Assembly: GCA_032127795.1 (NCBI GenBank)
Contig: JAQBHM010000068.1
Span: 1-24,310 of the forward strand
Direction: 5' to 3'
DNA from: Bacteroidales bacterium
Lineage (GTDB): Bacteria > Bacteroidota > Bacteroidia > Bacteroidales > VadinHA17
DNA length: 24,310 bases
Positions 10,527 through 16,197 of the stretch are shown here, piece by piece. The first letter of the stretch is position 1, and every line of letters begins with the position of its first letter. Position numbers and translations under genes: made by a program. The notes beneath the pieces were generated by a model that had not been told where the DNA came from, searched no databases, and saw only the letters and a list, made by a program, of their open reading frames with translations.

Positions 10527-10534
10527 TAACTTTG
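10527..10534 (+). promoter_or_regulatory. -7 element (TAACTTTG) for the caspase/sensor-phosphatase pair
   Basis: Exact TAnnTTTG in the AT-rich gap after ribD, 28 nt upstream of ATG 10563; no canonical -33 TTTG at 19-21 bp. Confidence 0.6.
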
Positions 10535-10562
10535 AGCTTCATTGAAGTTAAGGACGAAAGCT

Positions 10563-12951: not shown

Positions 12952-15900
12952 ATGCAGGGAGGCATAAATGGTCACAGAATACTGCGTTTTCAATCGCTGG
13001 CATGCCTGCTCTGTCTGATTGTTGTTACTGTCCGGGTCTCCACTGCCCAGAAATACTATTTTGAGAGGTACAGCTCCAAGGAGGGGCTCAGTGCCTCAAA
13101 AGTCTACTCTATAATTCAGGATGCCAATGACTTTGTATGGCTGGGAACAGGCAGCGGCGTCACCCGCTTTGACGGCTCCCGTTTTGAGAACTTCTCCTCC
13201 TCCAACGGGCTGGCCCCGGGAGGGGTGAAGAGCATGTTTGAAGACAGCCAGGGGAGGATATGGATGGGACATATAGGTGGCGGTCTGACAATCTGTGACG
13301 GAGGTGTTTTTACCCGGGCCCTCTTCCCTGCTTCATTATTTTGGGACGGTGATTCTGACACAGTTAAGGTCACCGGGAAAGAGGTATACAATGTACGGGG
13401 TGATATTACAGGGATAAAAGAATACGAAGGTTATATCTGGCTCTCCACTTCTGTTGGAGGAGCTTTGAGGCTGGAAAAACCGAAACCCGGCAGGGCCCTG
13501 ATGACCGGACGCCGGTATCTTGGCAGTGAAGGACTCAGCAATGATGCATTCGGTTTTTACACTGACAGAAAAGGTACCCTCTATTGCATTACTGATGTGG
13601 GAATCAGACGGTACAGCATTGAGAGTGACAGGTTTGATCCATACAATCCCGAGGGGCTGACGAAATACTTTCTCACAGTCACCATGTATGAGGATTCGAG
13701 GGGCAACATGTGGTTCGGGACATATAACGGCGGGCTGTACAAGCTTAATGCTGAAAGCGGGAAGATGGACATATATGACACCCGCAACGGCCTGTGGGGC
13801 AACTTCGTAACCTTTATTACAGAAGACTACCGGGGTAATATATGGGCAGCTTCAATGGAAGACTGGGAGAGCAGGGGCGGTATCACTGTCTTTTCTCCTG
13901 AAGGGACAGTTATTTTCAATGAAGAGAACGGGCTGCAGGCAAAGCATATACTCAGCCTGCTGGAGGACAAGGAAAAGAACATCCTCATTGCTGACCGTGA
14001 CGCCGGGCTGTTCATCTACAAGGGTGACCACTTCACAACCTACATGGCTCCGCTGTTTCTTCCTTCAAATGACGTCTCAACCATAGCCCTCGATGCCTCT
14101 GGCCGTTACTGGCTTGGAACACGTAATGGCCTCGCATTGCTTGATCCCTCTGAAAAAGAGGGAGTGAAGATAAAAACGTCAGGATTCCCCTCAGTTCTTG
14201 AGGGTAACCAGATAACAATGATAAGACCTGACAGAAGCGGGCATGTATGGATTGTTACCGGCAGCGACGAGGTATTCAGATACGATATAAGTGAAGGGTC
14301 ATTCAAATTTGATATCGGTCTTAATGCAAACCTTCAGTCAATGAGGATAGCAGCGATCACCACCGACAGGGATGACAATCTCTGGGTCGGAACTGACAAG
14401 GCTCTGATAAGGTGGAATGACAGGAAGAAGGAGGGTAACACATTTACACAGATAAACGGGCTTACAGGTAACAATATCACGGCACTATACCCTGACAGCC
14501 GCGGTGTGTTGTGGGTTGGCACCGAGGTGCGCAACGGCATATCAAAACTTCTCCCCGGCAGTGAGAACTTTGTGCCGGTAAAGTTTGAGGCTGATGTCAT
14601 GGCCACCACAATAACGGAAACTCCTGACGGAACCATCTGGATAGGGACTATTGACGGCCTCTACGGCCTGAGGGCTGACACTGTATGGCTGCGACTGACT
14701 GATGCTGACGGGTTGCTGATGAATTCAATCAATCTGCTGCAGCCCGACAGGGAAGGGAACCTCTATGCCGGGACCAACCTCGGGCTTAACAGGTATGATA
14801 TTGAAACCGGGAAAATATCAACGTTTACTGAAAGAAACGGATTCACCGGAATAGAGACACGTCCAAATGCCTCAACAATGGACAATAATGGTGACCTGTG
14901 GTTCGGAACAGCAAACGGGGTGATACGGATGAGCCCCTCACGCCTGCCGCCTGTCATTACTGAGCCTGCCACACACATATGGCGCACAAAGGTCAACCTC
15001 GAAGATTATGACATGTATAACGGAATAATCATGTCACATTCTGACAACCGTATCAGCTTTGATTTTCTAAGCATCTGCCTGGTAAACCCTGAAACGGTGA
15101 AATACCAGGTAATGCTCGTCGGTTCAGATAAAGACTGGGTTTCTACTGACCAGACCAGCGCAATGTATTCGTCACTCAGCCCGGGAAAATACACCTTCAT
15201 GGTCAGAGCCTCGAACAATTACGGCTACTGGAATCAGACACCCGTGGAACTGAACTTCTCAATCACTCCCCCGTATTACAAGCGCCCATGGTTTATTATT
15301 CTCTTCATCCTCTTCTTTACCGGATCCATATATACATTCATCAGCATGCGTGAACGGAAGCTGGTTTATGAAAAGGAAATACTTGAGGAGAAGGTCGAAG
15401 AGAGAACAGCCGAGGTTGTTACAAAGAGCATTGAGCTGGAAGAGAAAAACAGGGATATCACTGCCAGTATCAGGTACGCCGAACGCATCCAGAGGGCCAT
15501 GCTTCCGCCTGAGAACTACTTTAATGACACCTTTGTCCTGTTTATGCCAAAGGATATTGTCAGCGGTGATTTTTACTGGATGCATGATACGGGAGACAAA
15601 CATTATATTGCCACCGTTGACTGCACCGGGCATGGCGTTCCGGGAGCCTTCATGTCAATAATAGGACATAACTCGCTTAACAAGATCGTGAAGGAAAATG
15701 GCATCAGGCTGCCGTCAGAAATACTCGATCATCTTAATATTGAGGTTGTTCATGCCCTCCTGCAGAGGAGCGAAAAGGCCGTGCGTGACGGTATGGATAT
15801 TTCAATACTCTCTTTTGACACCAGGTTGAGATATATAGAGTTCGCAGGGGCTTACCAGCCGCTTTATCATGTCAGGGACGGACGTGTTACCATCCATAAG

Positions 15901-16197
15901 GGAGACCGGTTCCCGATAGGGATGATGGGGGCCAGGGAAAGGAAGGTCTTCACAAATAACCGCATAGAGGTAAAAAAGGGTGATATGCTGTATCTCTTTA
16001 CTGACGGCTATGCCGACCAGTTCGGAGGAGAAGAGGGAAAGAAATTCAAGACCATAAATATCAGGTGCCTCCTTTCAGAGATATACCAGTTTCCTGTTGA
16101 TGAACAGAAACGTCTTCTGGAGAAGGCAATAAGGGACTGGATGGAAGATATCCCGCAGGTTGATGATATTCTCTTCATAGGCACCAGGGTGCCGTAG
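12952..16197 (+). CDS. Membrane sensor: periplasmic beta-propeller (Reg_prop) + Y_Y_Y domain, TM helix, coiled coil, SpoIIE/PP2C phosphatase
   Basis: Signal peptide ..RVSTA|Q; many D-x-x-G-x-(L/M/V)W(L/F/I)GT and 'xxGL' propeller repeats; Y_Y_Y (YQVMLVG..W..YSSLSPGKYTFMVRA); TM PWFIILFILFFTGSIYTF at ~15289-15345; PP2C motifs KDIVSGDFY, DCTGHGVPGA, DGMD, LFTDGYADQFGG, QVDD. Confidence 0.9.
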   Translation: MQGGINGHRILRFQSLACLLCLIVVTVRVSTAQKYYFERYSSKEGLSASKVYSIIQDANDFVWLGTGSGVTRFDGSRFENFSSSNGLAPGGVKSMFEDSQGRIWMGHIGGGLTICDGGVFTRALFPASLFWDGDSDTVKVTGKEVYNVRGDITGIKEYEGYIWLSTSVGGALRLEKPKPGRALMTGRRYLGSEGLSNDAFGFYTDRKGTLYCITDVGIRRYSIESDRFDPYNPEGLTKYFLTVTMYEDSRGNMWFGTYNGGLYKLNAESGKMDIYDTRNGLWGNFVTFITEDYRGNIWAASMEDWESRGGITVFSPEGTVIFNEENGLQAKHILSLLEDKEKNILIADRDAGLFIYKGDHFTTYMAPLFLPSNDVSTIALDASGRYWLGTRNGLALLDPSEKEGVKIKTSGFPSVLEGNQITMIRPDRSGHVWIVTGSDEVFRYDISEGSFKFDIGLNANLQSMRIAAITTDRDDNLWVGTDKALIRWNDRKKEGNTFTQINGLTGNNITALYPDSRGVLWVGTEVRNGISKLLPGSENFVPVKFEADVMATTITETPDGTIWIGTIDGLYGLRADTVWLRLTDADGLLMNSINLLQPDREGNLYAGTNLGLNRYDIETGKISTFTERNGFTGIETRPNASTMDNNGDLWFGTANGVIRMSPSRLPPVITEPATHIWRTKVNLEDYDMYNGIIMSHSDNRISFDFLSICLVNPETVKYQVMLVGSDKDWVSTDQTSAMYSSLSPGKYTFMVRASNNYGYWNQTPVELNFSITPPYYKRPWFIILFILFFTGSIYTFISMRERKLVYEKEILEEKVEERTAEVVTKSIELEEKNRDITASIRYAERIQRAMLPPENYFNDTFVLFMPKDIVSGDFYWMHDTGDKHYIATVDCTGHGVPGAFMSIIGHNSLNKIVKENGIRLPSEILDHLNIEVVHALLQRSEKAVRDGMDISILSFDTRLRYIEFAGAYQPLYHVRDGRVTIHKGDRFPIGMMGARERKVFTNNRIEVKKGDMLYLFTDGYADQFGGEEGKKFKTINIRCLLSEIYQFPVDEQKRLLEKAIRDWMEDIPQVDDILFIGTRVP

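Follow-up and report, generated by a model that had tools for sequence, protein, structure and literature searches.

We analyzed a stretch of DNA of 24,310 nucleotides (hereafter, the window) from a Bacteroidales bacterium of the VadinHA17 lineage (assembly GCA_032127795.1, contig JAQBHM010000068.1). Two adjacent genes of the window, here called A and B, encode a TPR/Ig-Ig/caspase-like protein with a predicted signal peptide and a transmembrane sensor-phosphatase with a propeller/Y_Y_Y ectodomain and a PP2C output domain, respectively. Our best reading is that A and B form a functional partnership in the periplasm, and we regard the case for this reading as evenly balanced. We infer the export, the physical interaction, the proteolysis, the direction of signalling and the target that it involves; the gene structure, the domain folds, the intact motifs, the operon arrangement, the conservation and co-occurrence of the pair and the common history of the caspase and ectodomain segments come directly from the analysis.

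The conservation of the pair was analyzed at several levels. Full-length A with B directly downstream was found in nearly all of the 24 genomes of the genus that were searched, and also in two other families. A scan of 185,579 species genomes, for which a 12-sequence alignment of the A family was used as the query, returned 80 loci. At all of them (80/80), the block recX-prmC-ribD-A-B-LOG-trx-dnaE was syntenic. Since the whole block is kept at those loci, the adjacency of A and B there alone proves little. We also examined an order-level draw of 300 genomes (301 searched, with the window's own genome). A was present in 40 of the 300 genomes, these 40 representing about 24 families, and no A was found in 260 of the 301. 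A and B were adjacent in 33 of the 40 genomes that hold A. The flanking junctions were kept less well (ribD-A at 22 of 37 loci and B-LOG at 9 of about 30), and ten of the genomes with the adjacent pair have no ribD upstream and mostly also no LOG downstream. An orthologue of B at E <= 1e-175 was detected in 32 genomes, and every one of these also possesses A (32/32). Three genomes without A gave weaker matches to B, with E values of about 1e-142 to 1e-145, and these are taken as putative paralogues. No clear B orthologue was detected in a genome without A in the 301-genome search. The spacer between A and B is short throughout, with a median of 6 bp across 103 loci and a length of 20 bp or less in 90 of them.

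The earlier note on this DNA, made from the sequence alone, had proposed adjacency across Bacteroidota as a check of the pairing. The adjacency held within the order, as described above, but a draw of 400 genomes from the phylum gave only distant caspase domains (25-34% identity), all in other architectures. Five of the phylum-draw genomes with such domains possess no SiaA-like PP2C at all. We considered whether these distant relatives, which belong to other classes, are also paired with sensors, and this was rejected because no consistent sensor neighbour was found; the two loose cases that were seen are described below. Taken together, the adjacency, co-occurrence, spacer and phylum-draw results indicate that the A-B operon is ancient, has been inherited vertically and belongs to a single clade of Bacteroidales. 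In G008 and G012, both A and B seem to have decayed. This was set aside as a probable sequencing error, because these assemblies have few contigs and low completeness and because scattered stops occur in other genes too (L024).

To compare the histories of the individual domains, we took one fixed species topology (44 taxa, 85 branches) and estimated on it the branch lengths of segments of A and B and of five housekeeping neighbours. The residual (relative) branch rates were correlated, in place of a simple distance-matrix correlation. The rates of the caspase domain of A and the ectodomain of B were correlated with r = 0.66 and rho = 0.50 (permutation p <= 1e-4), and the correlation was similar on terminal and internal branches. 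It was 0.36 after removal of the ten most extreme branches, and the partial r was 0.61 when the TPR, Ig and PP2C segments were controlled for. In contrast, the ectodomain and the PP2C domain, which are adjacent in the same protein, gave only 0.12. The values for the TPR or Ig segments against the ectodomain were 0.27-0.33 (TPR, 0.27), and those for the caspase or ectodomain segments against the housekeeping genes did not exceed 0.20 in absolute value. One locus, L067 (CAWGUN010000012.1), is a mosaic: its TPR and PP2C segments, ribD, dnaE and prmC group most closely with one clade, and its caspase and ectodomain segments with a second one. The stretch from the caspase domain to the ectodomain in this locus was replaced as one block. 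Thus, no other two segments have as much history in common as the caspase domain and the ectodomain, and block replacement accounts for part of this. That the two diverge and travel together and their flanks do not fits a co-adapted unit.

A related pairing was found outside the orthologous loci. Among the most distant representatives of the family (P0194-P0220), the metagenome scan recovered one subfamily of this kind, on the contigs L176 and L177. Both encode an 836-amino-acid A-like protein that can be aligned collinearly with A from the last TPR through the two Ig domains to the caspase domain. Its identity to A is 27% (E 6e-43), its catalytic dyad is intact and it matches PF00656. Ten bp after this gene lies the gene of a 989-amino-acid propeller/Y_Y_Y protein, which aligns to B over the entire ectodomain and the membrane helix (E 3e-12) and carries a LytS-type histidine kinase at its end in place of PP2C. 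The L176 pair supports a tie of the caspase-like protein to the ectodomain and not to the output domain. A broader proposal, which we put forward only tentatively, is that the exported caspase-fold proteins of Bacteroidota form a general class whose members act as co-sensors in the periplasm. The Ig-caspase part would dock on, or process, a propeller/Y_Y_Y ectodomain whatever the output domain behind it (PP2C, or the LytS-type kinase in L176), with the caspase domain and the ectodomain co-adapted, evolving and being exchanged as one unit.

Three further arrangements were observed in these scans. The cluster at L176:2198-10084, also present in L177, has as its third gene a TPR LytS-type histidine kinase. 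In L170:6502-15807 (G361), a same-strand cluster consists of an FGE-sulfatase-like gene, a caspase gene, a 248-amino-acid open reading frame (ORF) without a Pfam match, a second caspase gene, a papain-like plus DUF4384 gene and a CHASE2-SpoIIE sensor phosphatase gene. This is another neighbourhood of exported caspases and a sensor-PP2C, in which the sensor domain differs. In L175:4862-10929 (G149), the gene of a protein with Peptidase_C14, PEGA and DUF5683 lies about 500 bp after those of a Reg_prop sensor histidine kinase (HisKA_3) and a LuxR-type response regulator.

Gene A (10563..12947; all positions are those of the window, on the + strand unless stated) encodes 794 amino acids from ATG 10563. 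The ORF opens at TTG 10542, and the ATG is the more likely start. The first 63 nucleotides (10563..10625) encode a hydrophobic segment, MRRGVLIISAVLFSVSLALSG (...LALSG, followed by Gln), which resembles a signal for signal peptidase I and has no lipobox Cys. The [AGS]Q junction is kept in 59 of 63 orthologues of A. This agrees with the Q-rule of Bacteroidetes, in which Gln stands at +1 after the signal peptide (PMC5837995). The signal peptide is followed by a region of TPR repeats at 10629..11621 (residues 30-360), which matches Pfam TPR_2, TPR_1, TPR_17 and related families with E values down to 4.5e-19. The next part, at 11634..12239 (residues 365-566), was modelled by AlphaFold2 as two tandem all-beta sandwiches of the Ig/FN3 type (predicted local distance difference test, pLDDT, 92), and a Foldseek search with this middle region returned tandem Ig and FN3 modules.

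The last 240 residues of A (12222..12944) are predicted to form a caspase-fold (C14-like) domain. The AlphaFold2 model, built with a 64-sequence alignment, had a pLDDT of 89 and a predicted template-modelling score (pTM) of 0.89. The best Foldseek match was MALT1 paracaspase (E 1e-11, TM 0.62), and yeast metacaspase Yca1 and caspases 3, 8, 9 and 11 were also matched. At the sequence level, Peptidase_C14 (PF00656) of Pfam did not match A of the window even at E <= 1, and Pfam and phmmer searches with the caspase domain alone gave no match. The NCBIfam caspase model scored 29 bits, against a cut-off of 140. Since no Pfam match was obtained, the caspase call relied on a family profile together with a fold search. 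With the family profile, MALT1 is detected from its sequence (E 6e-4), and the YAGHG motif of A is aligned to YYAGHG of MALT1, the motif with its catalytic His. Some relatives of A do match PF00656 and carry the NCBI name 'caspase family protein'. Judged from the model, the domain has the caspase-hemoglobinase fold and is C14-like.

The putative catalytic dyad of A is intact, with His647 in AGHG (CAT, 12480-12482) and Cys697 in DACESG (TGT, 12630-12632). Among 36 diverse representatives of the family, the His is kept in 29 and the Cys in 33, and both residues are present in all but three of the 64 aligned caspase domains. Asp at position -2 of the catalytic Cys suggests that A would cleave behind a basic residue, like paracaspases and metacaspases. 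Cys 716 and Cys 759 are invariant and may form a disulfide, which would suit an exported protein. Since the protein ends with the caspase domain, A has no C-terminal domain of the type IX secretion system. Additional caspase-domain genes were seen at a few loci. In G536 (L111), a gene with only the caspase domain lies between ribD and full-length A; in G655 (L107), B is preceded by such a gene alone; and in L081 and L077 a second caspase domain lies upstream of the pair.

Gene B (12952..16197) encodes 1081 amino acids, in which Reg_prop, Y_Y_Y and SpoIIE score above their cut-offs. The N-terminus (12952..13047) resembles a signal peptide (...RVSTA, followed by Gln), and the [AGS]Q junction is kept in 99 of 103 orthologues. 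The predicted periplasmic ectodomain (13048..15285) consists of Reg_prop beta-propellers (E 1.6e-49, with many repeats) and Y_Y_Y (E 5e-14; 15082-15264). It is homologous to the sensor domains of the hybrid two-component system (HTCS) proteins of B. thetaiotaomicron, namely 4a2l (E 3.9e-46), 3v9f and 3ott. The sole internal membrane helix, PWFIILFILFFTGSIYTFISMR, is encoded at 15286..15351 (residues 779-800, hydropathy 2.17). B has the Reg_prop plus Y_Y_Y sensor of an HTCS, but SpoIIE alone follows the helix, in place of the HisKA-HATPase-REC-AraC output.

A coiled linker and a SiaA-like PP2C (SpoIIE) domain, both predicted to be cytoplasmic, occupy 15385..16194. The SpoIIE model (PF07228) scored 62.3 bits, against a cut-off of 25, and the closest solved relative is the PP2C domain of SiaA from P. 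aeruginosa (PDB 6k4e, E 9e-37). The four metal-binding Asp motifs of B (GDFY, DCTGHG, TDG and DDI) align to those of SiaA in 6k4e, so that B carries both the domain and the residues of a SpoIIE/PPM-type PP2C. The NCBIfam model of SiaA (NF038263) scored 193.9 bits and only over profile positions 372-657. Because this score of about 194 bits compares with a cut-off of 700, B is not an orthologue of SiaA. The earlier statement that both catalytic motif sets are intact is borne out by the His and Cys codons of A and by the alignment of the four Asp motifs of B to 6k4e.

Based on these features, we propose the following mechanism for the partnership. A and B would be transcribed as one operon from the -7 box upstream of A. 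A would be exported via Sec and signal peptidase I into the periplasm, where it would display the TPR arm, the two Ig-like spacer domains and the caspase-fold cysteine-protease domain. B would be a type I membrane protein with its ectodomain in the same compartment as A and its SiaA-like PP2C domain in the cytoplasm. The earlier note had placed signal peptides that end before Gln in both products and had assigned A and the sensor domain of B to one compartment. The first point agrees with the kept [AGS]Q junctions, and the second is upheld by the conservation of the predicted signal peptides in both proteins. The Ig-caspase part of A would then serve as a periplasmic accessory or co-sensor of the ectodomain by binding it. 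In most lineages, it would in addition subject the ectodomain, or the precursor of a ligand, to limited proteolysis. This action of A would set the phosphatase activity of B, which would dephosphorylate a SiaC-family or STAS phosphoprotein encoded elsewhere.

As for the phosphatase target, the source genome encodes five SpoIIE phosphatases, five SiaC-family genes, two STAS genes and one clear RsbW/SiaB-like kinase (HATPase_c_2). Within the window, no SiaC, HATPase_c_2 or GGDEF gene was found, and none of the candidate targets (SiaC-family and STAS) is encoded there; all of them are located elsewhere in the genome. The window also holds no STAS anti-anti-sigma gene and anti-sigma kinase gene linked to the phosphatase gene, as the RsbU/RsbV/RsbW arrangement would have. 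Thus, the switch of sigma factors of the RsbU type that had been suggested for B is not favoured, since the output of B is nearer to the SiaA/SiaC type, judged from the similarity to 6k4e and NF038263 and from the five SiaC-family genes. The likely targets of B are SiaC or STAS proteins encoded elsewhere.

A number of observations weigh against the partnership. G575, G586, G572 and G691 possess A without a B orthologue, and the dyad of A is intact in the first two and degenerate in the other two. Nine metagenome contigs (L191, L196, L204, L207, L226, L228, L235, L238 and L249), which probably represent one lineage, have the order prfB-recX-prmC-ribD-A-trx-dnaE, from which B and LOG are absent, and the dyad of A is intact in them. 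In G711, G459 and G449, A and B are unlinked, and the neighbours of B are metK, an M49 peptidase gene or a two-component pair. Since intact A occurs without B in several lineages, A has a B-independent role and cannot act through B only. Thus, for the link between the caspase and the sensor that was claimed at the outset, comparative genomics favours a partnership but not a strict dependence. In G486 the pair is retained with a 2-bp spacer and the catalytic His is replaced by Leu. This change, together with the loss of the His in 7 of the 36 diverse representatives, indicates that catalysis is not always required where A and B are paired, and that proteolysis is not always needed. Part of the rate covariation comes from joint recombination, as in L067, and not from functional co-evolution. 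Because the caspase and ectodomain stretches are contiguous on the DNA, the co-adapted unit is not proven. The related genomes in our counts are non-independent samples, and the solved relatives of the B ectodomain bind glycans, not proteins.

Several of the same points speak for another explanation, in which A and B are co-transcribed but functionally independent. A would be a caspase-like protease or a scaffold in the periplasm that has envelope substrates of its own, B would be a propeller sensor, probably for a glycan or a small ligand, and their adjacency would reflect inertia in a stable housekeeping block. The synteny of the entire recX...dnaE block agrees with this, as do the lineages with intact A and no B, the three genomes with unlinked genes, the homology of the ectodomain to glycan sensors, and the recombination tract that explains part of the covariation. 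However, of all junctions in the block, A-B is kept best, and it persists in the ten genomes that have lost ribD upstream and mostly also LOG downstream. The absence of a clear B orthologue from the genomes searched that have no A also argues against independence, as do the covariation, which is specific to the caspase domain and the ectodomain and is low for the adjacent ectodomain and PP2C, and the distant A-like gene that is again paired with a propeller sensor. We consider independence a possible but rather doubtful explanation.

The earlier note had favoured a more specific relay, in which the TPR/Ig arm detects an envelope cue and the caspase clips the ectodomain or frees a peptide ligand, thereby toggling the PP2C. 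The dyad, which is intact here and in most orthologues, the predicted location of A and B in one compartment and the covariation of the caspase domain with the ectodomain are all consistent with it. On the other hand, the pair in G486 persists without the catalytic His, the covariation of the TPR arm with the ectodomain is small and A occurs without B. We therefore judge this relay to be unlikely. A defence module against phages or predators, similar to the gasdermin-associated caspase-like proteases or the TPR-CHAT protease of Craspase, had also been brought in as an analogy. The resemblance is a general one, consisting of TPR repeats and a caspase-fold protease beside a partner gene. PADLOC gave no match for A or B, both products are predicted to be exported or membrane-bound rather than cytoplasmic, no gasdermin, CRISPR or NTPase gene was found nearby, and the pair is inherited vertically in a housekeeping block over about 24 families and not in a variable island. 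These results leave the defence analogy with very little probability, and the partnership of A and B in the periplasm remains the reading that we prefer.

The source contig is part of an 80%-complete metagenome-assembled genome (MAG), and its closest relatives are environmental MAGs labelled Bacteroidales or 'Rikenellaceae'. Genes A and B are two long ORFs on the + strand that occupy 10542-16197. The neighbours are housekeeping genes, with prfB, mutA/mutB, recX, prmC and ribD upstream and LOG, trx, dnaE, rpsP and rimM downstream. The LOG-family gene (16200-16775, - strand) is convergent and begins 2 bp beyond the end of B. A putative -7 promoter box, TAACTTTG (10527..10534), agrees with the Bacteroidota consensus TAnnTTTG and lies about 29 nt 5' of the ATG of A. 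It is the sole TAnnTTTG on the + strand from ribD to the end of B, and none lies inside the A-B unit. An exact -7 box was found within 100 nt upstream of A at 43 of the 103 orthologous loci, mostly 36-48 nt from the start. Within the A-B spacer, such a box was found at 3 of the 103 loci, all of one genus, in which the gap is about 210-230 bp. In the window, the spacer is 4 bp (cctg, 12948..12951), between TAG 12945-12947 and ATG 12952. The coordinates and neighbours thus confirm the earlier description of a two-gene unit with its own -7 box and a 4-bp gap, set among housekeeping genes and bounded by the convergent LOG gene. No structured RNA was detected at the A-B junction or the start of B (z +0.77). 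A terminator-like hairpin inside B (13885-13910) was dismissed, as it is not conserved in close relatives.

Two other features of the window were observed. The prfB gene (1221-2312) carries the classical programmed +1 frameshift site, which is known biology: a short ORF runs from ATG 1221 into AGGAGG TAT CTT TGA C (about 1266-1286), and the main frame extends to 2312. The rpsP ORF (20832-21599) encodes 255 amino acids, of which only residues 9-67 form the S16 domain; the remainder is a long C-terminal extension of unknown role.

Through this pairing, an exported caspase-fold protein is linked genetically to a membrane sensor in hundreds of species of uncultured Bacteroidales. Bacteria possess many homologues of caspases, but to our knowledge a substrate or role has been assigned to almost none of them; the examples that we know of are cytoplasmic proteases of cell death or defence. 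If the partnership is true, it would give a bacterial caspase a concrete and testable job. It would also add a new kind of input to the large family of propeller/Y_Y_Y sensors, for which glycans are the only ligands known to us. Ser/Thr partner switching has, as far as we know, barely been studied in Bacteroidota, and the pair would provide a route there from the envelope to a SiaC-type protein switch. If the general class of co-sensors is true, it would represent an undescribed input to bacterial envelope signalling that is based on proteolysis.

The components of A and B belong to known families, and as far as we found, their conserved pairing as an exported caspase-fold protein and a propeller sensor is undescribed. 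Our search of the literature on partner switching in Bacteroidetes and on Reg_prop/SpoIIE sensors gave nothing specific. Surveys of prokaryotic caspase homologues report that TPR fusions and signal peptides are common (PMC3501461) and mention possible signal peptides and sensor genes in the same operons in general terms (PMC3501461, PMC6426788). The A-B pair, the order of the parts of A and a periplasmic location are not described in these two surveys. Like the C14 peptidases MALT1, Yca1 and the bacterial orthocaspases (PMC3501461, PMC6426788), A has the predicted caspase fold, His in YAGHG and Cys in DAC. Unlike them, A is too divergent for PF00656, has the order signal peptide-TPR-Ig-Ig-caspase, is predicted to be periplasmic and is encoded in an operon with a propeller sensor. 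A also differs from the caspase-like proteases of defence (gasdermin-linked, and TPR-CHAT of Craspase) in its signal peptide and in having no gasdermin, Csx30 or CRISPR effector as a neighbour.

Accessory periplasmic proteins or proteases gate membrane sensors in CpxP-CpxA, DegS-RseA and LuxP-LuxQ. These share with our proposal for A-B a soluble periplasmic partner that modulates a transmembrane signalling protein, but they have no homology to A-B. We know of no caspase-fold partner or PP2C output described for them. The HTCS sensors of Bacteroides (BT4663, PDB 4A2L/4A2M; 3V9F; 3OTT) possess Reg_prop propellers and Y_Y_Y that are homologous to those of B and stand in the same order. B differs from them in its PP2C output, in the location of its gene outside a polysaccharide utilisation locus and in its caspase-like partner. 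SiaABCD of Pseudomonas aeruginosa is a threonine-phosphorylation switch (PMC7647112). Unlike SiaA, B has a propeller/Y_Y_Y ectodomain instead of the N-terminal part, no siaB, siaC or siaD adjoins its gene, and SiaA has no protease partner. However, the cytoplasmic linker and PP2C domain of B are most similar to SiaA, and the genome of B carries five genes of the SiaC family.

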